Counted from the whole stretch's first letter, positions 28,246 to 46,606 are shown. The stretch is DNA of 63,991 nucleotides, filler included, from an uncultured bacterium (GCA_964449065.1; 7 parts of 7 records of this genome joined end to end with filler, not necessarily neighbours in it); one strand, 5' to 3'. Numbers and translations are program-made. The notes: a model not told the origin generated them from the sequence alone.

Positions 28246-29573
28246 GATATTATTCCGGATTTACCCGGCATCGACAAAGACTTAATCCTCATGCGAAATA
28301 CACTAATTAATATGGGGGTAAAAGAATCCATGATTCGAATCATGGAAGACGATCAAAGCACCGAGATGAGTATTTCCAACGAAATACTTCATTGGTTAAG
28401 CAACGATCTCTCCAAAGACGACCGGGTATTTATTTATTTTAGCGGGCATGGGTCACAAGTGATGGATGAATCCAACGACGAAAAAGACGACAATAAGGAT
28501 GAACTTTTCGTCCTCTATGACACCGAATTATCTAAAGATACATTGACAAACACATTGCTTGACGATTCTATGGAAACACTTTTAACTTCTATCCCATCTG
28601 ATCATGTCTTTGTTATAATTGATGCATGTCATAGCGGATCATCCCATCGCCGTTTTTCCCAAGATGTTTCGAAGTTTGTCGATTTTGAAGTGCCGAATTT
28701 AAAAGCATCCAAAGGATTTGGCGGCGGGTCCCGCGGACGGTTTCGTCCCGCGCAATCCCCCCCCTCTTCCTCTTCGTCTAGTCGAATCAATTATGTTTTA
28801 CTCAGTGCCTGTCAAGACGATGAAGAAGCACAGGCAAGCCCAAACGGCAGTTACTTTACCCTTGGCATCGCCGAAGCAGTTGAAAAAGCAAAACAAGACA
28901 ATCAATCCATCTCAATGGATGATTTGCTGAACTACACGACTGACTACATTCAGGAAAATGTATCCGACCCAAACAGCCGTTATAAACCCAACCTGAGTGG
29001 GAGTAAGAATCTCCGTTCTACAAATTTATTTGAAACCGGCAGCGGTCAAACGGAACCGAATGTAGGGAATGTCAGTGCGTTTTGGAAGCAACTGGAACAA
29101 TCCGTGGAAGAAGCCAACTATGCCGTTCCCCTTACCACGAATAAACGTCAATATTATCCGGGTGAACTACTGGAAATCTATGTCGATGTGCCGAAAGACG
29201 GTTATGTATATGTGTTCAATATCAGCGAAGAAGATACCGAAAAGGATATGCTGGTTTTGTATCCGAACGCGTATGATAGAGACAACAAAGTTCGGCAAGG
29301 AACAACGGTCACCATCCCTCCCAGCGACGCGTTCACGTTACCGGCATCGCCTCCCTATTCGTCGAGTTTACTTGTGGTCTTTATCCTCCCAAAAGCGCTT
29401 CCCTTGTCGATGGACGAGGACGAGATGATCGCGGGGATTTTCCCTCAATTTCAGGGGGGAGGGTTTACCCATGAATTGGAATCCCAGAAGTCCTCAAGGG
29501 GCAAGTTCGCGGTTGAACCGGGAAGACCGCTGGAAGAAAAAGTAATCGGAGCAGGCAAAACAACAGTCGAAGT
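28246..29573 (+). CDS. Caspase family (peptidase C14) + DUF4384 protein; 5' and 3' partial
   Basis: FSGHGSQ / IIDACHSG dyad; frame open from the contig edge (DIIPDLPGIDKD); C-terminal YYPGELLEI..DGYVYVFNI..VLYPN DUF4384 pattern. Confidence 0.88.
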
Positions 29574-29673
29574 NNNNNNNNNNNNNNNNNNNNNNNNNNN
29601 NNNNNNNNNNNNNNNNNNNNNNNNNNNNNNNNNNNNNNNNNNNNNNNNNNNNNNNNNNNNNNNNNNNNNNNNN
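29574..29673. other. Scaffold gap (100 N, no linker core)
   Basis: Pure N run inside a contig. Confidence 0.9.
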
Positions 29674-29674
29674 T

Positions 29675-30223
29675 GATGAGATCGCCAAACTCTTTTATTA
29701 TGCTGATAAAACCGAGCAGTTAGCATCTGGGGCGGTTGAACATGGCCAAAAACATTACAATTTGTTGATCGAACAGTTAAATGTATCGATCGCGAAAATG
29801 ACGTTAGAAAATCGAGAACAACTGCTCAACGAATTGGATGAATTATCCAGCAGAGAATTCAGCGAAGAAGAAAAGAATTTAATTGAAGAAGCCCTGAAAC
29901 AGCTGGCGGTGAGCCGGGAATTGGCGGGAAAAACACTCTTTGCGGCCGGTCAAATGATATTTACATCTACCAAATTGCCGAAAGAAGTGGAAAGCAATCC
30001 TTTGAAATATGGTTTGAATGCCCCCAAATATTTAAAAGATACGCCCGGGATGCTGAAAGATTTAAAAGGCATTCAAGAAAACGTCGGTGATTACATCAAA
30101 GTGAACAATGCGGTTTCGAAAAAATTGGCGGAAATGGCAAATATTGAAGTTCCGGAGGCGGAAAGCGAAGCCGTCGAAGAAGCCGGGGAAGGCATTTTGG
30201 GATCCGAAATTGAAATCTCGTAA
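29675..30223 (+). CDS. Helical hypothetical protein, 5' partial
   Basis: Frame open from the gap edge (DEIAKLFYY...); acidic C-terminal tail. Confidence 0.7.
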   Translation, partial: DEIAKLFYYADKTEQLASGAVEHGQKHYNLLIEQLNVSIAKMTLENREQLLNELDELSSREFSEEEKNLIEEALKQLAVSRELAGKTLFAAGQMIFTSTKLPKEVESNPLKYGLNAPKYLKDTPGMLKDLKGIQENVGDYIKVNNAVSKKLAEMANIEVPEAESEAVEEAGEGILGSEIEIS

Positions 30224-30274
30224 TGAACATGAGCAATCGACTCCGGTTTAAATCAATCGTTTTAATCATTAAAG

Positions 30275-32029
30275 GTGTATCAAATGCTTATTTGGTTTTC
30301 ATATCGTTTCTTATTGGTTCTCGTAAGTTCATTTATTTTCATGCAGGCGAATCATCCGTCCGTATGGTCACAAAATGATTCCGGTTCCCGTGGACGGTTT
30401 AATGTCGAGCCCGCGGAAGAATCGGAGATTATCGGGAAATCCAACAAATACGCAGTGATTGTCGGGGTCAATGAATACGGCGAATATGTCAGTGATTTAA
30501 GTGGATGTATAAACGACGCGAAAGCGTTGGCAAAAGCGTTTCAAGAAAAAGGATTTGAAGTCACTCTTCTAACCGACGATTCCGCAATCAAGCCGACAAA
30601 ACAAACAATCGAAAAAGCTGTTAATGAAATGTGCCAAAAGGCCAAACCGACCGATACCATCTTGTTTAGTTTTGCCGGGCACGGGGCCGTTTCTCCTGAT
30701 TCCCTGAAAAAAAGCGGCCAACTTCCGGAGGGATATCTGCTGCCGCGCAATTTTAGTAACACATCCAGTTTTGAAGATGAGGGCGTGCCGATTCAATACA
30801 TCAAAGAACAGTTCTATTCGGCCAAGGCGCAATTCCGGCTGATGTTTATGGATGCGTGCCAATCCGGCAGTCAGTTAATTATTCTTCCCGGCCGCAATGA
30901 CGACGGAACCATGAGTGAAAATATGCTGGCGTCCATCCGGGGCGCGGATCAAGAAGAAAGTCAAGAACGGGGAATCTATATTTTTTCTTCCTGCCTGCAA
31001 AATCAATTGGCCTATGAAAGCAAAAGCATCAATCACGGTTATTTCACCAATTTTGTCGTCGAAGGCTTGGAGGGGAAAGCCGCGGATTATGAAGGCGAAG
31101 TATCTGTATACAGCTTGGTGGATTATGTAAGCAAGCATACCCAACAAACGGTCATGGAGGAAAAGAAAAAACGGCAAACACCACAGTTGCTATCGGAAGG
31201 GATTCGCATGGTTTTGGGGCAAGTTCCTCCCAGCCAGGTTCCGTACCCCAAACCAACCGATGTCGTCACCGTTACCGCGCTGGGGTATTCGTATTTATCC
31301 GACGGCGTTCTCGCGAAATACAACGCGATTCACGATGCGTATGCAACCGCTGTTTATCAGGTGTTATCCGAAGTCAACAATGAAGTGGAAAACTATCCGA
31401 AATCCCTGGACTATGTCTTAAACCGGGCGAGTCAATTTATCATCAACAAACGGTCGGAAAATAAAATCACCTCCACGCAAACCGTTGATGACCAATATTA
31501 TGAAGTGGAAATTCAAGCCGAAGTGGATAAGAAACATTTGCTATCTGTAGCGGCACAGCAAGGGCTAATCCCATACGATGTCATGAGAGAGCACGATTTA
31601 ATTCATGAAATCAAAGCGGGGCTGTACATTCCAGAATCCTCACGCCAACCCGAATATGACGAACGCCTGCGGGAAAACATATCCGCTATATTTGATCGAC
31701 TTAAAATCCCTTTTGTCCGCAATTTACATGATCCGGTACAGGATGCGCAAGCTAAAGACTGCAATCTCATTATTGAAACCACCTATAAATTAGAAGCCAT
31801 CGCAAAACGGGGGAAACTATTTCAAAGTTCATTGACAATGGGCATTAAGTCCTTTCCGGCATCCAGCCAAAGCGTTTCAAACCGCGAGTGGATCGCCTCA
31901 ATGGACACGGAAACCGTGACCGGATTGGGAATTTCACAAGGAGAAGCGGACGACGAAGCCTTCAACAAAATGAGCGATTCCGTGGAATCGTTTGTGAATC
32001 AGACCATCCATAACCTTATGCAGCAATAG
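30275..32029 (+). CDS. Exported caspase family (C14) protease with C-terminal FlgT-N/LPP20-like region
   Basis: Signal peptide; YAVIVGVNEY, LSGCINDA, FAGHG, MDACQSG, HGYFT, QTP; then VTVTALG..AKYNAIHDAY..YEVEIQAEVD. Confidence 0.88.
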   Translation: MYQMLIWFSYRFLLVLVSSFIFMQANHPSVWSQNDSGSRGRFNVEPAEESEIIGKSNKYAVIVGVNEYGEYVSDLSGCINDAKALAKAFQEKGFEVTLLTDDSAIKPTKQTIEKAVNEMCQKAKPTDTILFSFAGHGAVSPDSLKKSGQLPEGYLLPRNFSNTSSFEDEGVPIQYIKEQFYSAKAQFRLMFMDACQSGSQLIILPGRNDDGTMSENMLASIRGADQEESQERGIYIFSSCLQNQLAYESKSINHGYFTNFVVEGLEGKAADYEGEVSVYSLVDYVSKHTQQTVMEEKKKRQTPQLLSEGIRMVLGQVPPSQVPYPKPTDVVTVTALGYSYLSDGVLAKYNAIHDAYATAVYQVLSEVNNEVENYPKSLDYVLNRASQFIINKRSENKITSTQTVDDQYYEVEIQAEVDKKHLLSVAAQQGLIPYDVMREHDLIHEIKAGLYIPESSRQPEYDERLRENISAIFDRLKIPFVRNLHDPVQDAQAKDCNLIIETTYKLEAIAKRGKLFQSSLTMGIKSFPASSQSVSNREWIASMDTETVTGLGISQGEADDEAFNKMSDSVESFVNQTIHNLMQQ

Positions 32030-32117
32030 ATATTGTGTGGTATTCAACGGCGGGGGATATTCAAACCGTTGCTTCTTTCATCGATAAATTCAATTCACTC
32101 TATTAAAAGGAATACCC

Positions 32118-34484
32118 ATGAAATATTTCTGTAAACCCATCGGCGTTTTGATTGCACTTCTTTTTTGTCTTTCATCATCCAACGCGCAAGTGGCATTGCG
32201 TTGGAATCCGGTCGTGACCGATACGATAGCAGAAACACCCTTTGTGGATTTAGCCCGTTTTCAAAACGCGGTCAAAGACATGCAGCCCGGCCTGGAATCC
32301 AGCATGTATAGCGGCAATACGTTTGCGCGGTTGGAAGAAGTCACTAACAAAGACGAATTGCTGCTCGCGTTTATCACGGTCAGCAATCTCAATCTACAGC
32401 AGTGGTCTTCAACAGAAAATTTATCGCATCTCGTCTTTTTTCGCATCGCGGCAAATCTTCAAATTGTGGACCCCGTATCCGGCCAAGTTGTCTTCTCGAT
32501 ATCGGATTATCTATTTCGTGAAGACTGGGATCACAACGGCAATCCAGCCTTGAATCGTGAATTCCAAGAGCTGATCATGTTTAAGAAAGAACGAGACAGC
32601 GGCGCCATCACGCAATTAAATTACAACCTACAAACAAAATCACGGGAAGAAGTGCCTGTAAACGCAACCGATGTGTTTGCCGATCTCCTGCGCTTGGGCG
32701 CGCAAGAAATGATTCAACAGGCAAAAAAACAATTTCAGCCTGCCCGAATCGAAGCCCAGGTCGCTTTCGCTCCCAAGTCATTGCCCGGACGCCGGCGCGT
32801 CCGCGGAACAAGCACGGAACCGTACGTTTTAAACAAAGGCAGACAAGACGGTCTATTTCCCGAAATGCTCTTGTATTCCCAGGATAAAAATACATTCCTC
32901 CGAGTAACCGAATCATACCCCACCTATTCCCTGGCCCTTATGGAATCGGGAGGAACGGTGCAACAGTGGGATTCGTTTCAATCGTTTAAGATGGATATGG
33001 GCACGCCGGACGCGCAAGCGTTGGCATCCGTAACCCGCGTGTTATTTACGGACAGCGTATTGCAGCACGAAGACACCCGATTTTTGCGGGAAAGTGAAAA
33101 CGCTCTTCAAAAGGAATTCGGAGAACGAAATTCGTCCACCCTCAACATTCCCGCGTATCACATCTCCTACGCCAGTTTGTTGAATAGCGCGGTGTTGCGA
33201 ACAGGTAACGTTCGCATGACGTATCCGTTAATCGGTTTGGTTGAGTTGGATAACGCCAAGATTGAAATGCAGGATTTACGCAATCAACTTGACTTTGACC
33301 GGTTTAGTTCCTATCTCCGGCCGGATTTTGGTTTGACAGCCATTGTTTCGAATTTATCCAAGCACACGATTGAAATTCCGGGAGGCCATCGAATTACATA
33401 CAGTCTATTGGTGAGTGTGCATTTGTATGATTTACGAACAGGCGAAATTGTGGCTTCCGGTACGTCACAAAAAAGCCGGCGCTACGACCGAATTGCGGCT
33501 ATGGGAATCACGGTGCAAGAATTGGATACACCGGCTGTCCTCATCAACCGCATCATTCGGGATGCGCTGCAAGACGCGTCCGCTCAATTGGGCGGTACGT
33601 ATCAACCCAAGACGGTTACGGCAAACGCTTCCTTTGTGAATGCTGCCGCCGTGGACTTGGAATTTCATGAAGAAGATGGTTTGTACATAGGCAAACGGCT
33701 GACCCTTTCTACACAATGGACCGAAGCAGCGATGTCCGAACAATCCGGAGCGAAACATCCCATTTACCGTCAACGGGGAGAATTGCTGTTAACCGGGCGC
33801 AAAGGTAAAGCTAAGAAATGGAACGCGTTGGTCAACTTTGCCAACTTAAAGCTGCCTGAAATCCAGTCTTCGTTTGTACCGTTATACGGCGTCAATCAAG
33901 TGGATACAAAGGCACCCAAATTATCACACGCCATTCGTTCTTTCATAACACAAACCGGTACGAATCTAAAACGGGCTGTTACCAATGATGACCTGTCGAT
34001 GCTGGTATTTGCCCAGCTTTCCCGTTATCCAAATCTTCCTCTTCACATTCCAAAAAGTATGCAGGAACAATTGTTAGAATTTAACGCGCAAAAATATGCT
34101 TACGAAGCCGTGTTTGAAGAGGTAGAAGAGTTCGCGGAAGATACGCAAAGCATTGAAATGCAAGCCGTTAATTCTCTTCTTAATTGGGACATGCGAGAAA
34201 ATCAAGAGTATCAAATTTTGATTCAAGTACCGTCGGCAATTGCCAGGCGGATTTCCAGTGATGATTACAAAACAAAGAAAAAATTAGATGTAAATATTCA
34301 GTTGCAAATCGCGTTATTGGATGAAAACCGTAAACCAATTTACGAACCGGTGGAACTGAAAGTAAAAACCAAACAATCCGTAAAATACAACTCCATTGAA
34401 GGAGACGATTTTGTTCGTCAAGTATTCTACGATTACATTCCCAAAGTGATGGATGTGTTTTGTACCAAAAAGATCAAAGGATAA
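32118..34484 (+). CDS. Large exported protein with CsgG/FlgT-like modules
   Basis: Signal peptide (SSSNA|Q); LQIVDPVSGQVV and VHLYDLRTGEIVASG (CsgG-like); VLNKGRQDGL (FlgT-C-like). Confidence 0.65.
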   Translation: MKYFCKPIGVLIALLFCLSSSNAQVALRWNPVVTDTIAETPFVDLARFQNAVKDMQPGLESSMYSGNTFARLEEVTNKDELLLAFITVSNLNLQQWSSTENLSHLVFFRIAANLQIVDPVSGQVVFSISDYLFREDWDHNGNPALNREFQELIMFKKERDSGAITQLNYNLQTKSREEVPVNATDVFADLLRLGAQEMIQQAKKQFQPARIEAQVAFAPKSLPGRRRVRGTSTEPYVLNKGRQDGLFPEMLLYSQDKNTFLRVTESYPTYSLALMESGGTVQQWDSFQSFKMDMGTPDAQALASVTRVLFTDSVLQHEDTRFLRESENALQKEFGERNSSTLNIPAYHISYASLLNSAVLRTGNVRMTYPLIGLVELDNAKIEMQDLRNQLDFDRFSSYLRPDFGLTAIVSNLSKHTIEIPGGHRITYSLLVSVHLYDLRTGEIVASGTSQKSRRYDRIAAMGITVQELDTPAVLINRIIRDALQDASAQLGGTYQPKTVTANASFVNAAAVDLEFHEEDGLYIGKRLTLSTQWTEAAMSEQSGAKHPIYRQRGELLLTGRKGKAKKWNALVNFANLKLPEIQSSFVPLYGVNQVDTKAPKLSHAIRSFITQTGTNLKRAVTNDDLSMLVFAQLSRYPNLPLHIPKSMQEQLLEFNAQKYAYEAVFEEVEEFAEDTQSIEMQAVNSLLNWDMRENQEYQILIQVPSAIARRISSDDYKTKKKLDVNIQLQIALLDENRKPIYEPVELKVKTKQSVKYNSIEGDDFVRQVFYDYIPKVMDVFCTKKIKG

Positions 34485-34594
34485 ATTTATATTTCAGGGT
34501 AAACAAAACGATGGATGCGCTTTTTTGCCAAAATACATCTTTGCCAAAGCACATCCATCTTATTCCAAATTGTTTTGCCGTCGCGCTGTAGACA

Positions 34595-35983
34595 TTATTC
34601 CACTATTTCGACGATGATTTTTCCCGCGGAATAACCGGATTGCTTGGTTTCTTCTACACCGAAACTTTTGGATACTTCATCCACTGTCACGCTTTTAAAT
34701 AAGGAATCGAATTCGAACTGTTCTCCTTTTTGATTCAGTATTGGTTTCGGGGTGATTACGGCGACGATCATGGATTTTCCGGTAGGCCGGTTTGCCGGAA
34801 GCCGAAATTCATTAGACACTGGAGGTAAGGTAACAACCATACCGCTTGGAACCCGGTTGTTGGAATCGTATTGATTCGGGAACAACATGGTATAGTCGGA
34901 GTCTTTATCAGTCATGTTGAGTATATAAAGATAACCCGGTCGGGGGGACGTTAAACGAATGTTAAGTTCCTCTCCCAAACGAAATTGGACCTGATTAGCC
35001 TCGAGTGTAATGTTGTCGGCGGCTTGTGCCACGACGTTCTCTAATTTCTGCCAAGCGGACGATTCCGACCGGTTGGTTAACACCATTCCCCGTTGAATCA
35101 AATGGTTATGACCTGAAAGATTGGGTGTATGATGCATCGTAGGATTGGAAAGATTTTGACGAATATATTGCTCGCTTGTTTCTACCAAATCTATAAGAGA
35201 TTTGGTATCTGCTCCTTCACGAATTGCTTTCTGAATACCGTGCAATAAGCCTCGGGTAAAAAAACCGCCTTCAGGATTCCCAACGGCGGATTCATCATCT
35301 TGGCATGCCGATAGTACCGCGTACATTTTCCCCGACCGCTGTTGAGGTATATCTTTACTTTGAGATGTGTTTAAGCCGCGCTGTTGTAATAATTGGCTTA
35401 ATTGATTTGTTGATATGTCTGCATTCACGGGTGGAATGTATCGGGTTTGAATGCCATCCGACTCCAAACTTTTATACATCGTTCCACTGTGACAAGAATC
35501 GATGATAATATAGGTTTCTTTTGCTTGGATTTTGTTTAGCATTATACTTATGATATCATCCGTAATCGCTCCATACAGCATATTATCTTTTACCTCATAC
35601 CAGTTATATAAACAAAGAGTTTCGTCTTTTTTATCATCCGTTTCATCTCCATTTGTATCCGGAATTTGAGACCCGTGACCGGAAAAGTAGAAATACGCTT
35701 TCTCTCCAGGATTATCCATTAACCAAATCATGCCATCCACAACATTTTTATCGGTGACTTGGCTGTCTTGCAGAATTGTTATATCGCTTGGCTTCAAGCC
35801 CAATTGCTGCAACAGTTTCTGCATATTTTCCACATCCTTCTCGACACCGTTCAGATCGGTTACCGAATCGGATTGATAATCCCGTACACCAATCAATAAC
35901 GCTTTATCTGCCTGGACGGATACCATACCAATAAACACAACTCCCATAATCATACATAGTTGTAAAAGCGGTTTTTGAATCAT
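34595..35983 (-). CDS. Exported caspase family (C14) + DUF4384 protein
   Basis: Signal peptide (VQA|DKALLIGV); FSGHGSQ / IIDSCHSG; FRLGEEL..PGYLYILNM..MLFPN; paralog of 28246. Confidence 0.9.
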   Translation of the reverse strand: MIQKPLLQLCMIMGVVFIGMVSVQADKALLIGVRDYQSDSVTDLNGVEKDVENMQKLLQQLGLKPSDITILQDSQVTDKNVVDGMIWLMDNPGEKAYFYFSGHGSQIPDTNGDETDDKKDETLCLYNWYEVKDNMLYGAITDDIISIMLNKIQAKETYIIIDSCHSGTMYKSLESDGIQTRYIPPVNADISTNQLSQLLQQRGLNTSQSKDIPQQRSGKMYAVLSACQDDESAVGNPEGGFFTRGLLHGIQKAIREGADTKSLIDLVETSEQYIRQNLSNPTMHHTPNLSGHNHLIQRGMVLTNRSESSAWQKLENVVAQAADNITLEANQVQFRLGEELNIRLTSPRPGYLYILNMTDKDSDYTMLFPNQYDSNNRVPSGMVVTLPPVSNEFRLPANRPTGKSMIVAVITPKPILNQKGEQFEFDSLFKSVTVDEVSKSFGVEETKQSGYSAGKIIVEIVE

Positions 35984-35987
35984 TTGT

Positions 35988-37509
35988 TTACTCCTCTATA
36001 TTAGTATTTTGGTTTGACATTTGAGATAGCAACAAGTTCCATACCCGGTCAAAATTCATATTCCGGCTTTGCCTTTCATTTTTTGCCACACGAATTTGGA
36101 TTCCAACTTTATTCGCAAACAACCCTTTTGATGGTGCGATAAAGTAATCGTTTTCTAACGAGCCATAGAGTTGCGTTTGGGTGGCATTGTGAATGCCCCG
36201 CAGCCCCAGTCCGGAATATTTGAATTCTCTGGAATACAGTTCCTTCATTTTCCCTTCATATTCTCCCATCGAGGTTTGACTCAATTCAATCAATTTTTGC
36301 AATGTCTCTCCGCTAATAATTTGTTCTTTCTCATCTGTGCTTTCCAGCCGCAAGTCAAACGCAACTGGTTTCGGCAATTCTTGTGAACCCGGATACGGAA
36401 AACGAATTCTCAATCCATTGATATATCCATTCATTGTTCCGGTCAGTTTTCCATAATTGTAAACACGGGTGAGTTCTTCCAAATCAATACCGTTTAACTT
36501 GACATCCATTCCCATGATTCTTGAATCCGGCTCGTAGAATACATTTTCTATGGACAATTGCCCTGAGAAGGCATTCCACGTTACCCTGCCCTGCAGCGAA
36601 AACTGTTCTCCGATCCAAATCAATTCCGTCGCATCCAACGATATCGTTCCCACATCCCCCACATAAGGAACAATTTCATTGACTTTCTTCATTTCCATAT
36701 TCCGTATTTTGATATCGCCGCGAACAACCGGATATCCGCCTTTCCACTCTTGAAATTCAAGATCGTGAACCCGCAATTCGCCCCCCAGACAAGGGATATT
36801 TAGGGCATAAGGCAGACGAATCGCTTCGTCATAGAACTCAACAATAGAATCCACATTGGAATAAAAATTCTCGTCCCACATCACCATATCCGATTGAAAT
36901 TTCACGGTAGGATGAGGAAACCCGCTTACCATAAGCGGGTACGCGAATGGAACAGTAATCGTTGCATCTTGTATTCCCAAAGCCGGGGCTTCATCCCGGC
37001 GCCAGGAATCAATTCGAAGAACCGTTTCTCCTTGGAACGTCGTCAGGCCTTTTGCCCATCCGCTGGAACGCCCTTTCACAGGAGGAAGTAAACCAATATC
37101 AATTGGCGAATAATTTTTTACCATCGGCAATGCAATTTCCTGCATGTCAATGTTATTCCATGTTAAATCGATCCCATCTGAAACATTGTATGTACCGGCA
37201 ATTCGGCCTTCTTCCGGCAATTGGACATGATAGGAATAATGGCTCAGAGGATCCTTGCTATGAATTTCGGCTTGAAATCCTTCTACCGGCAAGTCCAAAA
37301 CATACCACATATACTCACCATACGTTGTGGCCGCTTGAATGGTTGATGAAACTTGATTCCAGTCTTGAATCGTGATGGTTCCGGATACATCATCACTTTC
37401 AATGCCCATATAAGGATCAGAATCCACATAACGTAACGACACCCGGTCGCTTTTAAAACCGGCCGTTACTTGCTCTAAATTTCCTTGTATGTCAAATTCA
37501 AGATCCCCC
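35988..37509 (-). CDS. Beta-rich envelope protein (YdbH/AsmA-like C-terminus), 5' partial
   Basis: Frame open to the contig end; IDLEELTRVYNYGKLTGTMNGYINGL and FKYSGLGL beta-strand patterns; stop 4 nt before the caspase start. Confidence 0.55.
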
Positions 37510-39192: not shown

Positions 39193-40659
39193 TTAATTCG
39201 TTGCGGCGGTATTGCTTAGGATGCCGGGACTCGCGCTCTGCACGGTTCCGGTTGCCGATTGTGGATTGGTAAAGCGCTCCAGCACCGAACTGGGAATAGC
39301 GGGCGGGGGTGGCGCAGAACCCGATTCTCCCTGCAAGATGGGCTGCGGCCTGGATAACCGTGGTCCGGCATCATCCAATAAACCCACATTATCGCTATCG
39401 CGTGCCGGGAGGTCTTCGGATGACACCACCGGTGTGGGCGTTGGGGTTGGTATCAGCCAGCGGCGGTTTAGCAAGCTGCCGCCCGGTACTTCCAGCACCG
39501 GCAGCAAGACGGGAGTGGGGGACGGTGTTGGCGTTTGCCGCGGCGTGGGTGTAAAAATGATCACCGGTTGTTTTTGCTGCTGCTCTTGCAGGGCGGTTTG
39601 CTGCTGCGCTTGTTCCTCTTCGGCTTTTTCTTGTTGCTGACGCACCCAGGTATCATAATTTTGCATACGCTGTTGGATGGATTGCGCCAGTTCCTGCATG
39701 TGGGCTTCTTCTTGCGGCGAGACTTCTCCTTGATCGTTGGTGCGCTGCCAAAGCCGTTCTTTCTTCTTATAGTCGCGCTCGGGTTTATAGCCTATCAACA
39801 TCGACTTAAGTTCGCCGGTTTCTTCTTGCAGCGGATCAACGATTTCTTGCGGTTCGTCATGCGCGTTTAAAAACGCCTCCGCTTGGTCAACGATTTGTTG
39901 ATAGAGTTCCCTCTCCTGTTCGATTCGTTCTTTCAGCGAATCTTGCCGGCGCATTTCTTCTTCTAACCGTGAGGCCAATTCCGCTTCCCGTGCTTGGTTG
40001 ATGGAGTTGGCGGCTTGTTGAAAGGCCGCGCCGATGTTATCCGCGATGTCAACCAACGCGTCTTTTTCCGCCTTGAGATAAACGGCGCGCTCGCCGAACC
40101 AGGGGACATCCTCTAAATAGCGGTTGTTGTATAAAGGCCGGCCGAAATCCAGTTCAAACGCACCGACTTTCATGCCGATCAACAGGCGTTTTTCGTCGCC
40201 TTTCCACACTTGGTTATAGTGGGTGCGTTCCATCAAGATGACGACATCCACATTCAAAAAAGGAACCCCGTCGAACAAGGTTTGGGGATTGATCGTGCCC
40301 TGCTGTTCCCATTCATCCATTAATTGTGCAAGGATATTTTCGACCACTTGTCTGCGGGTGGGGTCATTAAACGAGTTTAGGGTGAATACATGTTCGCAAA
40401 AATAGCCGAGATATGCAGACATTTGGTCGTGCAGCCGCGCATCGACAGAACGGTTTTCCCTCTCTTGTGGTGGGAGATAAAACAACGCGCGGATGCCCCG
40501 CTGCTGCTGCTGTTCTGGATCCCAAAAAGTGATGGGGCCGTATTTTGGATCAGGGGGATCGGTATCCTTGCCGAAAAGGCCGCCGAAATTGAACTGGGCG
40601 GCAGCCGGCAAGCAGGCGATAAGCAAGACAACCAAAAGTGAGTTGATTTTCACAAGCAT
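39193..40659 (-). CDS. Secreted hypothetical protein with coiled coil and Pro/Thr-rich tail
   Basis: Signal peptide (LPAAA|Q); Q-rich helix; TPTPRQTPTPSPTP. Confidence 0.75.
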   Translation of the reverse strand: MLVKINSLLVVLLIACLPAAAQFNFGGLFGKDTDPPDPKYGPITFWDPEQQQQRGIRALFYLPPQERENRSVDARLHDQMSAYLGYFCEHVFTLNSFNDPTRRQVVENILAQLMDEWEQQGTINPQTLFDGVPFLNVDVVILMERTHYNQVWKGDEKRLLIGMKVGAFELDFGRPLYNNRYLEDVPWFGERAVYLKAEKDALVDIADNIGAAFQQAANSINQAREAELASRLEEEMRRQDSLKERIEQERELYQQIVDQAEAFLNAHDEPQEIVDPLQEETGELKSMLIGYKPERDYKKKERLWQRTNDQGEVSPQEEAHMQELAQSIQQRMQNYDTWVRQQQEKAEEEQAQQQTALQEQQQKQPVIIFTPTPRQTPTPSPTPVLLPVLEVPGGSLLNRRWLIPTPTPTPVVSSEDLPARDSDNVGLLDDAGPRLSRPQPILQGESGSAPPPPAIPSSVLERFTNPQSATGTVQSASPGILSNTAATN

Positions 40660-40723
40660 GATAATCCTCAACCAAAACAGTATCGTCTTATTATAGCCGC
40701 TTCTTGAATAGCGGCACAAAAGA

Positions 40724-40751
40724 AAAAGGGATGCCGTTTGACACCCCTTTT
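40724..40751 (-). terminator. Probable intrinsic terminator after the 40774 gene
   Basis: AAAAGGG(A)TG...CACCCCTTTT hairpin with A/T tracts on both sides. Confidence 0.5.
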
Positions 40752-40773
40752 CGAAGCCGTTGGTTTTGACGGC

Positions 40774-43434
40774 TTATTCAAATGTAACTGTTCGATTTCC
40801 GGCACTTTCGATGGACAGGCCGGAATCCGGATTGACGGCTCGCAAACGGTATTCACCCGGCGGCACGGTTTCCGGTTCGATGTCGAGAAAAATTTCATCC
40901 TGTGTCAACAAAGCATCTCCGATTTCCGGAGGAATAATGGGGAAGGAAAACGGATCCACTTCCGGCAACGCGACAGGCTCACTGCCGTCAACCGGCAGCA
41001 AGAAGAATTGCGTAAAGCCGTCCAATTCTACCCCTGAAGGTCCGTAGCCCCTAAAGTTGTCGCCCACAATTCTCATCTGTACCGGCTCTGAAGAGCTGAA
41101 CGGCTGGCCATCGTTTGTCCAGTCCGGATTCGAATCGATATCATCTGCCGGCCGTTCATACAACACCGGCGGCAATGGAGCCAAGATGTCAAACTCCCGC
41201 AAGACTGGTTCGCCGTTTCCAAATTGGATGGAAGCGGTTACCGTTCCGGTCGCTTCAATGATGTTCGGGGCAAGGAATACCGTAATGCTGTTTTGGGTTT
41301 CAAATACATCGACGCGGGTTGGTTCGGCAATTCCAGCCGCTGCTTGACTGCCGGTGATGATATCCTTGCCTTCGACCGAGAAGTTCAAACTGCCCGGCGA
41401 GAAACCGGAACCGTCAAAACCGAACGTAATGGCGTGATCGGTTTGCAGCGGGAAGTTTTGCGAGTCCGGATTGTAAGTGAAACCGTTGGTAAAGTCATCG
41501 GGATTTCCGACGGAAATAATAAAGTTATCAACAGAAACCGCGCCGGAGCCGCCAAAGAGTGAAATAAAGAAGGTGTTGCTTTCCAAGCCGGAGAGTTCAT
41601 TGCGCACTCTGACTTCGGCGAAATCTTCCGCCCGGAACCCGGCATCTTGCAGGCCGGAGATATCGGCAACCAGGGCATTGCCGTTTACAGATAACAAATC
41701 AGAAGCCGGGATGGTTAATTCAGCCGTGCCTTGGGTGATGATGACGGTACTGCCGTTTTCTCTTGAGGCGTCTTCTAGCAGCGGGCGGAAGTGATTACCG
41801 GTAATGGTGAGTTCGGCATCGCTGCTTTCAATAAAGAACTGTTCGGGATTGAGACCGGTGATTTCCGGGGCCGGGGCCGCGTTCAAAACCACTTCAAACG
41901 GAGCGGTGGTGCGGCCGTCCGCCAGGTTGACAACCAGGCTTGCGGTTACATCGATTGCGATATCGGCCGGTCGCGGCAGGGTGGCTTGAACCGCGCCATT
42001 CACCACTTGAATTTCCGTAATTTCCGTCGATGTGTCACCCACATTAAAGTTGACGGAACTCGCACCGCCCAAGGCTTGCCCTTCAATAAGGATGGGATTC
42101 TCTGTATCCGCGAACAATTCATCACCCGCACGGCTGCTGACCTGAGCTATCACCGGATCACCGCCGCCGGATGCCGCGTCAAAAATTTGCAGGTTATCTA
42201 AATAGCCGCCTTCAAAGAAGGATTGTGATCCATCGCTTTGGAAGCGAATTGAAACCAAAAGACCTGCATCTTGAGGTAAAACAGCTTCGATGTGGATAAA
42301 GTCCTCTGTCGTAATATCCTCAAACTTATCCTTGCCGGGTGTGGAACTATCGTAGAGCGCGTCGAATGCCCCTTCGCTTTGGAAGCCGAGTGCGGAATCC
42401 GTATTGGCAGCCTTTAACCCAACATCGCTTACCACTTCACCATCGCCGTTTAGGTCTATCAGTTCCCACGTATCGGAATCTTGGCGTTTGACTTCAACCG
42501 TGATGTAATCCCCGGCAATACCCACGGGGTCATCCAGCACAAACGCGATATCAAACGCGATTCTTGGCGCAACGGCTCTGCTGGTGTTGAACGTTTTATC
42601 GATTTGCAAAATAGATGCTTGATCGTTCTCATAAAAGAACAAGTCGGGATCATTGTTAAACGTGATGCTCTTCGGGGCGCTTTCGGCAATGCCGCGGTCG
42701 CCCGCTTGGTTTGCGGAGGTATCCACAATGACCCAAGGGAACACCTCAAACGTATTCGGTGCCACTCTGTCTTGATTTTGTAAATCAGCGGTATCGCCGT
42801 TGGTGAATGTAAAGACATCGTCTGTTACGTCGTCAATGTCGTTTGCGACGGCTTCTAATTCATCAAAATTTTGTTCAAAAGGTTCAAAGTCGCCGGGGCC
42901 GGGGGTAAAGGTTGGCGTGGGTGTTGCCGTTGGTTCCGGTGTATTGGTTAAAGTTGGCGTATTCGTTGGCGTTGGCGTGGGGGATGGCTCTAGCGTATTG
43001 GTTGGCGTGGGCGTAGGCGGCTCAACTATTGGTGTATTCGTGGCTGTAGGAGTAGCCGGTGCAACCGTTGCCGTTGGTGTTGGTGTGGCATCCCCTACTG
43101 TCGGTGTCGGTGTTGGAGTCGGCTGTTGAAATTCAAAATGAAACGACTCACTAAATATCAACAAATCCAGCGCATTAAATGTGCCGTCACCGGTAAAATC
43201 GTTGGTGGTGGGTTCGGTGGCACTGCCAACACGCCATTCATTGCTTAGCAAAAATAGGTCTCTGGCATCAAGCCGGGCGGTGTCGTCTATAAAGATGTCT
43301 TCATCAAGACGCTGCGCGAAAGAGTTTTGGCCGCTTACCAATAAGAGCGTCACCAATGCGAACAATGTAAACACGCTCACAAAAGTTTGTTTTGCTTTTT
43401 CCCAACATGCTGCTTGCATCCCTTTTCCATTCAT
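40774..43434 (-). CDS. Large secreted acidic surface protein (dockerin/EF-hand-like N-terminus, PT linker, IPT/TIG-like domains)
   Basis: Signal peptide; DFTGDGTFNALDLL; about 80-aa PT repeat; APEITGLNP..LTITGNHF. Confidence 0.8.
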   Translation of the reverse strand: MNGKGMQAACWEKAKQTFVSVFTLFALVTLLLVSGQNSFAQRLDEDIFIDDTARLDARDLFLLSNEWRVGSATEPTTNDFTGDGTFNALDLLIFSESFHFEFQQPTPTPTPTVGDATPTPTATVAPATPTATNTPIVEPPTPTPTNTLEPSPTPTPTNTPTLTNTPEPTATPTPTFTPGPGDFEPFEQNFDELEAVANDIDDVTDDVFTFTNGDTADLQNQDRVAPNTFEVFPWVIVDTSANQAGDRGIAESAPKSITFNNDPDLFFYENDQASILQIDKTFNTSRAVAPRIAFDIAFVLDDPVGIAGDYITVEVKRQDSDTWELIDLNGDGEVVSDVGLKAANTDSALGFQSEGAFDALYDSSTPGKDKFEDITTEDFIHIEAVLPQDAGLLVSIRFQSDGSQSFFEGGYLDNLQIFDAASGGGDPVIAQVSSRAGDELFADTENPILIEGQALGGASSVNFNVGDTSTEITEIQVVNGAVQATLPRPADIAIDVTASLVVNLADGRTTAPFEVVLNAAPAPEITGLNPEQFFIESSDAELTITGNHFRPLLEDASRENGSTVIITQGTAELTIPASDLLSVNGNALVADISGLQDAGFRAEDFAEVRVRNELSGLESNTFFISLFGGSGAVSVDNFIISVGNPDDFTNGFTYNPDSQNFPLQTDHAITFGFDGSGFSPGSLNFSVEGKDIITGSQAAAGIAEPTRVDVFETQNSITVFLAPNIIEATGTVTASIQFGNGEPVLREFDILAPLPPVLYERPADDIDSNPDWTNDGQPFSSSEPVQMRIVGDNFRGYGPSGVELDGFTQFFLLPVDGSEPVALPEVDPFSFPIIPPEIGDALLTQDEIFLDIEPETVPPGEYRLRAVNPDSGLSIESAGNRTVTFE

Positions 43435-44674: not shown

Positions 44675-45157
44675 ATGGAGAAAAGATTAATTACTTTAAA
44701 GCTTGTGCTTGATAGTATTGATGTTGAACCGAACATCTCTACCATTGACGATAGAAAAAAAATTCAGAAAGCAGTATATCTGAGTCAATTAACAGGTGTT
44801 GATTTAGGATATCGCTTTGGGTGGTATTTGATGGGACCGTATTGTCCATCTCTAACATCAGATTATTATGCTTTAAAAGAATCTATCGAATCTAAAGATG
44901 ATGAACATAAAAAATTTGAACTTAAAAAATCGATTAAAATACCACTAGAAAAAATAAAGCCATTGTTTGAAGTGCCAAAAAATGTCGACTTATCAGTTGA
45001 GAGTTGGTTAGAATTAATTGCTTCATATCATTTTTTGAGGTCGATAAGTGACCTGTCAGTTGAGGAAACAAAAAAAACATTAAAGGAAAAGAAAAGTGAA
45101 TTATTTCCATATATAAAAGAAGCAGAAAAAGCATTAAAAAAGCATTCACTCATTTGA
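44675..45157 (+). CDS. YwgA-like / Panacea-like winged-helix protein
   Basis: RKKIQKAVYL...GYRFGWYLMGPYCPSLTSD...WLELIASYHF; AT-rich. Confidence 0.65.
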   Translation: MEKRLITLKLVLDSIDVEPNISTIDDRKKIQKAVYLSQLTGVDLGYRFGWYLMGPYCPSLTSDYYALKESIESKDDEHKKFELKKSIKIPLEKIKPLFEVPKNVDLSVESWLELIASYHFLRSISDLSVEETKKTLKEKKSELFPYIKEAEKALKKHSLI

Positions 45158-46606
45158 TTGATGAAAGATATTGATTTTAATTTTAAAAGAATTACAGATC
45201 CCGTTCATGGAACCATTGGTTTAAGTGAACTCGAATCGAAAATTATTAATGTAAAACCTTTTCAACGATTAAGAAATATTAAACACCTAGGTTTAGCCCA
45301 CCTTGTTTTCCCTGGATCAGATTTTTCTCGCTTTTCTCATTCCATTGGTGTGTGTAGTACAACAGGTCTTATACTTCAATCATTACGAGATTATTTTGGT
45401 GAAAAGATAGATGATAAAGAAATTCAAGAGTATAGACTTGCAGCGCTGTTACATGACATAGGGCATTATCCATTTTCTCACGCCATGGAAAAAGCAATTA
45501 AAAATTATTATGCTGGTACATTTATCACAAAGAAAAATACAAAGAGAACAAAATCTAGTGAAGAAAATGAAGAGTTTTTTGATCATGAAAGATTAGGAAA
45601 AGAAATAATTATCAGTGACCCTGAATTAAATCAAATATTAAATAAATATAAAATAAAACCCGATAGTATATATAGTGTATTTATGAGAGAGAAACCGTTA
45701 AAGTTTGTAAACATAATAAGTTCAGACTTGGATGCAGACAGGCTTGATTATTTATTAAGAATGGCACATCACACCGGGATGCCGTATGGAAATGTAGATA
45801 TAAATTATTTACTGAGTCAAATAAAACTCGATAAAGATAACCGACTTTGTATTAGTTCTAAGTCGATTAGAACCGCTGATCATTTATTATTATCAAGATA
45901 TTTTGCTTATCAACAAGTTGTTTATCACAAAACAGTCTTTATATTTGAGCATATTTTAAATGAACTTATAGGGGAACTTTTTAAAAAGAATAAAATAAAT
46001 GGATCTAAAAAGTGGGTGACTAAGGCAGTATTAAATCAACAAGAATGGCTAGAGTTTGATGATTCTTTTGTTACAAATAAAATAAGAGAATTATATAAAT
46101 CCTCACGAGACAATATTTTAAAAGCAAAAATAAATTCAGTTTTAAATCGAAACCCTCCAAAACTAGTGGCAGAATATGAGGCTTTAGAGGCACGTGAATC
46201 TAAATCAGAATTTCGGAGCAAAAAAAGTTACTTGTTAGACAAGATAAATAAATGGAGTAGAGATTTTAATATAGATAAAAGACTGTGGTATTGTTTAGAT
46301 ATACCAGGTATGCCTTTAACAAAGATTGGATCTCATCTTAACGTATCAAGTTTAGAAGAAAATCATTCCGAAGAAAAAGATAAATATGAACAATCTATAA
46401 GGGTATTGAATGATTTAGATAATACATCTAAACCTATAATGGAAATGCCACAATCTCTGATGAAAGTACTTTCAGATAACTCACTTTATACATTAAGATT
46501 ATATGTTTTATTTCCTGAAAATATGGCTTCAAATGAAAAAAGTTCAAAGAGCTCACAGATAAGAAAAAAAATACAATCTGACTTGCCGGATATTCAATGG
46601 AAATAA
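45158..46606 (+). CDS. HD-domain phosphohydrolase, SAMHD1/YwfO-like (putative dNTP triphosphohydrolase)
   Basis: DPVHG, FQRLRNIKHLG, SRFSHSIG, ALLHDIGHYPFSH, DLDADRLDYLLR, QVVYHK. Confidence 0.9.
   Translation: MMKDIDFNFKRITDPVHGTIGLSELESKIINVKPFQRLRNIKHLGLAHLVFPGSDFSRFSHSIGVCSTTGLILQSLRDYFGEKIDDKEIQEYRLAALLHDIGHYPFSHAMEKAIKNYYAGTFITKKNTKRTKSSEENEEFFDHERLGKEIIISDPELNQILNKYKIKPDSIYSVFMREKPLKFVNIISSDLDADRLDYLLRMAHHTGMPYGNVDINYLLSQIKLDKDNRLCISSKSIRTADHLLLSRYFAYQQVVYHKTVFIFEHILNELIGELFKKNKINGSKKWVTKAVLNQQEWLEFDDSFVTNKIRELYKSSRDNILKAKINSVLNRNPPKLVAEYEALEARESKSEFRSKKSYLLDKINKWSRDFNIDKRLWYCLDIPGMPLTKIGSHLNVSSLEENHSEEKDKYEQSIRVLNDLDNTSKPIMEMPQSLMKVLSDNSLYTLRLYVLFPENMASNEKSSKSSQIRKKIQSDLPDIQWK

Follow-up and report, generated by a model that had tools for sequence, protein, structure and literature searches.

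Three caspase-family proteases beside a candidate FlgT/CsgG-fold envelope scaffold on one contig of an uncultured bacterium

The window analysed here is a stretch of 63,991 nucleotides from an uncultured bacterium (GCA_964449065.1) in which unrelated contigs are joined by N spacers, and the feature under study, a cluster of genes for caspase-family (peptidase C14) proteases and envelope-type proteins, occupies a single 9,264-base contig, C203 (positions 28246 to 37509). The source genome (5.2 Mb, 87% complete) was recovered from microbial-mat metagenomes of one study. Six genes, here called A to F, form two convergent units, A to D on the plus strand and E and F on the minus strand, and both ends of the contig are cut (Table 1). 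An earlier note on this DNA had read the cluster as a scaffolded cascade of several proteases located in the envelope. We find three proteases with intact catalytic dyads, one of them fused to a scaffold-type module; B, the tail of C and D appear to be the front half of an envelope operon.

The three C14 proteases with complete His-Cys dyads that had been reported are indeed present. The products of A, C and E match C14 above the Pfam cut-off (E values of 6.6e-18, 1.6e-27 and 2.1e-21 among the three), with dyads SGHG/DACH in A (His at 28447, Cys at 28627; His68/Cys128 of the 442-residue fragment), AGHG/DACQ in C (His at 30680, Cys at 30857; His136/Cys195) and SGHG/DSCH in E (His103/Cys164), and all three have the caspase fold and dyad that define peptidase C14B. 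Asp50 and Asp162 of E are invariant across A, C and E and align, together with an acidic insertion, with yeast metacaspases and Geobacter GSU0716, the closest solved relatives of E. In metacaspases and MALT1 two Asp residues form an Arg/Lys pocket (PMC4357240), and A, C and E likely cut after Arg or Lys. The metacaspase-type acidic insertion is found in A and E and is missing from C; where present it probably binds Ca2+, and metacaspases are described as calcium-dependent (PMC5756287). A structural model of E (predicted local distance difference test, pLDDT, 79) matches plant metacaspases and the caspase-Ig3 portion of MALT1 (Foldseek E 6.5e-12 to MALT1). DUF4384, said to end two of the proteases, was recovered above the Pfam cut-off in A and E, which share 34% identity. 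The complete C14 (three) and DUF4384 (two) sets of the genome are confined to this one contig, so chance is not the explanation for their clustering.

Export was judged, for window proteins and homologues alike, by a crude Kyte-Doolittle hydrophobicity heuristic. By this measure the N-termini of C, D and E combine a basic residue at the start with a hydrophobic stretch (best 11-residue mean of 2.7-3.2) and a small-X-small site; none of the three has an internal transmembrane-like stretch, and signal-like N-termini occur in 20 of 34 E homologues. C and E are the two signal-bearing proteases of the earlier description, and A, which runs off the contig end, is the third. The proposed envelope location is consistent with these N-termini and with the lipoboxes carried by both full-length homologues of B (P0055, 75% identity; P0057, 62%), from which B is predicted to be lipid-anchored.

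The description of D as an exported CsgG/FlgT-like protein of 788 residues likewise stands on its signal-like N-terminus and its fold, there being no Pfam or NCBIfam match. The AlphaFold2 (AF2) model (pLDDT 77.7, predicted template modelling score 0.80) has three CsgG/FlgT-M-type alpha/beta domains (residues 24-207, 298-495 and ~600-788) interspersed with a pair of small beta domains (209-291 and 497-593), and Foldseek retrieves FlgT (8z5n, E 4.4e-11; 3w1e, E 1.6e-9) and CsgG (E 5e-4), as well as HpaA and PelC; both the M and the C domain folds of FlgT are found in D. The global template modelling score to FlgT is low because the domain arrangement differs, and VIA-wide Z scores of at most 9.0 are not decisive. 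Neither D nor its homologue P0038 has a lipobox.

Six loci of a Planctomycete-type subgroup of D homologues (L031-L036) provide a comparison for the plus-strand unit. They stem from two genomes labelled Phycisphaerales and Isosphaeraceae and from four metagenome contigs, one protein of which clusters with a Phycisphaerae entry; the scan covered the ten rows of this subgroup, the contexts of P0038, P0039, P0040 and P0043 falling outside it. A FlgT_N-containing protein directly precedes D in all six, a B-like lipoprotein lies upstream in five (the sixth contig is cut there), and a small lipoprotein and a DUF6844-type protein follow in five (the sixth is cut inside D). The operon (e.g. L035:865-9181) thus reads lipoprotein, FlgT_N protein, D-like protein, glycine-zipper small lipoprotein, DUF6844 protein and a sixth gene, and a separate FlgT_N-like gene lies near it; we found no description of it in the literature searched. 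B aligns with its first-gene lipoprotein (hhalign 91.5%, E 8.5e-7). The FlgT-N-like tail ascribed to C was upheld in part: beyond an N-terminal extension of ~25 residues and the C14 domain, the tail (residues ~326-584) matches a profile of the Planctomycete FlgT_N proteins at E 3e-5, but the Pfam FlgT_N signal is weak (none in C itself; its homologue P0037 reaches E 0.01), hhalign against the Planctomycete C-like proteins gives only 5.9% probability, and Atlas matches, at below 0.9, are leads only. Homology of the tail therefore rests on the hidden Markov model search and on gene order. The N-terminal domain of the Planctomycete FlgT_N protein is replaced by C14 in C, and searches of this genome turned up none of the genes that follow D in the Planctomycete operon (small lipoprotein, DUF6844 protein, last gene). 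Since B, the C tail and D are homologous to and colinear with this uncharacterised envelope operon, they appear to be its front half, in which the first domain of C is a caspase.

A model of D (residues 24-600) in complex with the C tail (326-584) scored 0.37, the best of three controls reaching 0.01, with contact agreement between runs of at least 51% and partner pLDDT of at least 78. The pass mark is reached by 116 of 157 solved complexes and by 2 of 215 mismatches, and passes scoring 0.60 or less comprise 18 of the 157 solved complexes and both of those mismatches. The model thus weakly suggests that the C tail binds D.

Table 1. Features of contig C203, in window coordinates, with the basis of each assignment
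Feature	Position	Strand	Basis or remark
Gene A, C14B + DUF4384	28246..29573	+	Pfam; 5' end lost at contig edge; final codons and stop in N gap
SRGRF, catalytic-domain linker of A, candidate cut site	28729..28743	+	Motif scan; inference
SRGKF, loop preceding last DUF4384 strand of A, candidate cut site	29494..29508	+	Motif scan; inference
100-N scaffold gap	29574..29673		Holds stop of A and start of B
Gene B (3' part), lipoprotein outside any Pfam family	29675..30223	+	Homologues P0055, P0057; hhalign
Gene C, C14 + FlgT_N-like + alpha/beta tail	30275..32029	+	Pfam for C14; profile match for tail
SRGRF, N-terminal extension of C	30386..30400	+	ARGRF in homologue P0037
Gene D, 788 residues, FlgT/CsgG fold	32118..34484	+	AF2 model, Foldseek, VIA, Atlas
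Spacer with stem-loop, possible terminator	34485..34594		Between convergent units
Gene E, C14B + DUF4384	34595..35983	-	Pfam; model
Gene F (3' part), YdbH-like envelope protein	35988..37509	-	Sub-cut-off Pfam; paralogue on C301

A short motif links two of the proteases. SRG[RK]F occurs four times in the genome (1.3 million residues in long six-frame stretches), twice in A, once in C and once elsewhere, and is a candidate cut site. E carries SKSFGVE near its C-terminus, and E and its homologue show S/T-K-S-F where A has its second copy. Basic, small and hydrophobic residues also stand ~7 positions after the catalytic Cys in 26 of the 37 C14 proteins scored. In the 30 C14 homologues left after removal of six near-duplicates, a broader form of the motif was counted 65 times, 56 of these away from the Cys+7 site, against 18.0+/-3.8 in shuffles; counts in 18 Planctomycete operon proteins (9 versus 8.7) and in 400 open reading frames of the host (180 versus 168) show no enrichment.

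Both the A-B linkage and the earlier note lean on the scaffold join at 29574. The 100-N gap is a placeholder that contigs of run X1 enter by 76 bases on its left side and 146 bases on its right; on reading by eye, the first of these pieces closes the frame of A three codons further on, and the second carries the frame of B on, into a stretch resembling the B homologues. The true gap probably exceeds 200 bases, because full-length B homologues have 257-259 residues and 182 are visible here. The join appears credible, because contig depth is similar on the two sides (5.5 and 6.05), a rare motif is common to A and C, and a false join would be unlikely to bring one of the three C14 genes up against the other two. 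The D/E spacer contains a stem-loop (-25.3 kcal/mol, z -2.63; 1 of 200 shuffles equally good) that a terminator scan did not pick up; promoter-like sites fall below the shuffle count and terminator-like sites are at shuffle level. The contig is mildly atypical of its genome (GC content 44.2 versus 47.5%; tetranucleotide rank 110 of 127).

Outside this genome the components are rare or scattered. B and D were found in none of 34 other genomes of the phylum. D has 8 relatives among 1.84 billion cluster representatives, is full-length in one of 401 genomes of the phylum of genome G042 (G042 itself), with two weak partial matches besides, and has no match in genome_contigs or plasmids; the B homologue has none in viral contigs. 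Of the seven family f5 genomes, five have full-length E-like genes; 19 genomes of the host's own family have none, two of them showing weak partial matches. Relatives of B (62%), D (52%) and E (50%) were each placed on a Logan contig 23,916 bases long (P0002/P0038/P0057), and relatives of B (75%) and C (66%) each on one 21,287 bases long (P0037/P0055); the matching lengths suggest B-D-E and B-C linkage in two related genomes. The expectation that these genes co-occur elsewhere thus appears borne out for those groupings but not for the three-protease set, no second locus of this type having been found in any other genome searched. E-like domains also occur in 184 plasmid records.

Several arrangements seen among these relatives are recorded as observations in their own right. 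In family f5 an exported C14-DUF4384 gene is followed by a second exported C14 gene (L022:8283-12343, L021:8199-10963, L023/L024 and L025:7994-12104), and this second C14 is fused to clostripain (C11), giving a fusion of two clan-CD proteases, in L022 and apparently in L023/L024 and L025; in L070 and L071 of the same family, exported C14 genes are divergent from standalone exported DUF4384-like genes. Plasmid p2 of Azospirillum (L037:10840-25876) carries three caspase-family genes, two DUF4384 genes, three OmpA genes and a tubulin-like gene, with a type IV secretion cluster adjoining. The E homologue P0017 (780 residues) contains PF14528 and PF14890 besides its C14 domain; we take these to be LAGLIDADG and intein families, which would suggest an intein in this caspase gene.

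The earlier note had counted F as a member of the system and had D and F flanked by the proteases. D is so flanked, but F is not, E and F lying on the minus strand and running towards A-D; F ends 4 nucleotides before E starts. Its match to the YdbH-like Pfam family PF11739 (E 0.006) is below the cut-off. The YdbH-like intermembrane bridge has a ydbH-ynbE-ydbL context, and the neighbours of F-family genes vary among the family loci. F is 48% identical to a paralogue on contig C301 (G000:C301:3384-6515) and at most 32% identical to proteins of other genomes; the family is matched once in 18 of 19 family genomes and twice in this one, and no C14 gene lies beside an F-family gene in the 17 family loci read. 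F as a specific partner was accordingly rejected, being a duplicated family-wide gene with C14-free family loci, and is probably a bystander, an insertion neighbour.

Elsewhere in the window, a low-GC (35%) stretch at 44675-46606 has a gene for a 160-residue protein without Pfam match directly 5' of an HD-domain gene; presumably it resembles SocA/Panacea-type antitoxins, which would make a defence or toxin-antitoxin pair possible. At 39193-43434 a tetratricopeptide repeat (TPR) membrane protein adjoins two large proteins, both apparently exported and both with PT-repeat linkers, one of which has a weak dockerin-like domain (E 4e-5).

The reading that we favour, and hold only tentatively, is that exported C14 proteases specific for Arg/Lys are recruited to a lipoprotein-anchored envelope scaffold of FlgT/CsgG fold, where they mature one another and then process envelope proteins. 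Its starting point, seen in the sequence, is the intact dyads and S1 Asp pair of A, C and E, DUF4384 in A and E, and the fusion of C14 to a FlgT_N-like tail in C. C, D and E would be exported via Sec, B would be held by its lipid anchor, and the C tail may dock on D, which, judging from the folds of FlgT, CsgG and PelC, could oligomerise near the outer membrane and so concentrate C. A and E would be Ca2+-binding, metacaspase-like zymogens with an Ig-like tail, cleaving after Arg/Lys of S/T-R/K-G/S-hydrophobic motifs, both within their linkers and within the N-terminal extension of C, and thereby relieving auto-inhibition. The most likely output would be the regulated processing or turnover of proteins in the envelope or at the cell surface, and not cell death. 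A protease cascade is plausible on these sequences. Its most specific form, a periplasmic caspase-activation platform in which D and B build a FlgT/CsgG-type ring beneath the outer membrane that clusters C by way of its FlgT-like tail, and Ca2+-triggered A and E cut the SRGRF propeptide of C in an ordered extracytoplasmic cascade, we consider unlikely; were it true, it would place in the envelope an analogue of apoptosome- or CBM-style scaffolds, with a shared cleavage code that could be read off the sequence.

A number of results weigh against the recruitment of these proteases to a scaffold. C14 is absent from all six Planctomycete-type loci, and PF00656 from both genomes that host such loci, each of which is incomplete; the scaffold thus exists without caspases, and proteases are not its defining function. 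Scaffolded proteases are favoured by the fusion in C and, weakly, by the model of binding to D, and that model may itself have passed through resemblance to solved FlgT/CsgG rings. Convergent transcription of A-D and E-F means that they are not one operon; the A-B join is bridged by no contig examined, those of run X1 included, and neither contig end was extended. No C homologue was found on the 23,916-base contig (among proteins of 321-1022 residues, the only ones searched), no E homologue on that of 21,287 bases, and no A orthologue in the searches made. In four g24 genomes the E-like gene neighbours another exported C14 gene, which some of them carry as a clostripain fusion, and D is not adjacent; the three plasmid regions read hold multi-caspase clusters that include DUF4384 together with unrelated partners (OmpA, trypsin/serpin, or S-layer/TPR). 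Several C14 genes in one cluster are therefore common, and the partners vary. The motif pattern was chosen post hoc, after the sequences had been viewed, and part of its occurrences (FTRG) belong to a structural helix. Neither D nor what is visible of B contains the motif, which suggests that the proteases process one another and not the scaffold.

Many of these points agree with a looser association, a close rival that we regard as possible if somewhat doubtful: independent exported proteases, engaged in nutrient scavenging or general envelope clean-up within a mat, would sit beside a truncated envelope operon and mature themselves without any cascade, although C may be tethered. The convergent layout, the housekeeping nature of the duplicate F, the changing partners of C14-DUF4384 genes, the mildly atypical composition of the contig and the missing downstream Planctomycete genes all suit this account, and, the basic residue at Cys+7 being general in the subfamily, self-processing alone could explain many of the motifs. 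Harder to reconcile with it are the specific SRG[RK]F form common to A and C and kept in the C homologue, the fusion of C to a scaffold subunit, and a B-D-E linkage that a relative seems to retain at 50-62% identity.

Caspases act in bacterial immunity, and the sporadic distribution of B and D is typical of defence genes, so that the scaffold might sense a breach of the envelope (by phage, predator or injection system) and the proteases destroy invader proteins or kill the cell. This appears decidedly unlikely: PADLOC returned a generic caspase model only and no match for P0055 (as proxy for B), D or F, the NCBIfam EACC1-type caspase fell below cut-off, and no effector or sensor gene was seen on the contig, whose ends are cut, and no effector gene beside D in six related loci, no genome-wide search for gasdermins having been made. 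A surface or secreted weapon, in which D would serve as a CsgG-like channel or as a platform at the surface, so that the proteases are exported or displayed against neighbours, draws on the CsgG/PelC likeness of D and on the surface or fratricidal roles speculated upon for extracellular metacaspases (PMC3501461); given that D is far closer to periplasmic FlgT than to CsgG, has neither lipobox nor CsgG Pfam match, and adjoins no cargo or immunity gene, we think it improbable. Most improbable is a flagellar H-ring accessory with attached proteases, for although the top fold matches of D are FlgT and the host carries an FlgH gene, that gene sits apart on contig C176, neither this contig (ends cut) nor the six Planctomycete-type loci showed a recognisable flagellar gene, and the M-C-M-C-M order of D is unlike FlgT.

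In the literature that we found, no exported bacterial caspase homologue has an established activity, activator or substrate, though such proteins have been counted since 2012. The locus amounts to a small test set of three intact enzymes, candidate cut sites common to two of them and a candidate scaffold, for which the protease-free Planctomycete version is a natural control, and it also contributes B, representing a lipoprotein family, and D, a tandem FlgT-type protein, neither with a Pfam model; its weight is limited by its rarity and by the uncultured host.

Among known systems, the caspase-based anti-phage systems (gasdermin-linked, CRISPR-linked and EACC1-type) employ cytoplasmic proteases, whereas C and E have signal-like N-termini by the heuristic used here. 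The novelty that the earlier note drew from this contrast was overstated, as exported metacaspases and operons of up to three had been counted in 2012 (Asplund-Samuelsson, PMC3501461). A C14-FlgT/CsgG scaffold is not described in the non-subscription literature searched, although similar operons may be listed in Dataset S1 or Table S2 of PMC3501461. The metacaspases and orthocaspases of C14B (Geobacter GSU0716, 3BIJ; yeast Yca1, 4F6O; TbMCA2, 4AFR; Microcystis MaOC1) resemble A, C and E in dyad, acidic S1 pair and fold, and those of yeast share the acidic insertion of A and E, but the proteins here add signal-like N-termini and DUF4384 or FlgT-like tails. The MALT1 paracaspase (caspase-Ig3), much as predicted for A and E, joins an Arg-specific C14B domain to a following beta-sandwich domain, and is freed from the auto-inhibition that Ig3 imposes (PMC4357240); it is, however, eukaryotic, cytoplasmic and CARD-scaffolded, and the analogy with DUF4384 can only be suggested. 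Curli CsgG is a lipoprotein with a CsgG Pfam domain and csg neighbours, which D resembles in fold only. FlgT of the Vibrio H-ring (3W1E, 8Z5N) and Helicobacter HP1454-HP1456 (Lpp20) likewise combine FlgT-N-like and M/C-like domains in exported proteins, the Lpp20/HP1454 operon being linked to FlgP/FlgT folds with unclear function (PMC11756786). FlgT is, however, a single protein of three domains in N-M-C order, whereas here the domains are split and duplicated, with the N-like domain on C and D modelled as M-C-M-C-M, and proteases are attached. The Planctomycete lipoprotein/FlgT_N/D-like/DUF6844 operon is the homologous, colinear version free of C14. The caspase-trypsin-serpin-DUF4384 operon of Rhizobium and the p2 cluster of Azospirillum likewise combine several C14 genes with DUF4384 and envelope partners, and DUF4384 accompanies 23 cyanobacterial orthocaspases (PMC8283722); here, instead, the C14 genes are partnered by a lipoprotein and by proteins of FlgT/CsgG fold, and a scaffold module is fused to one of the proteases. 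The locus is a rare variant of a widespread kind of gene cluster.

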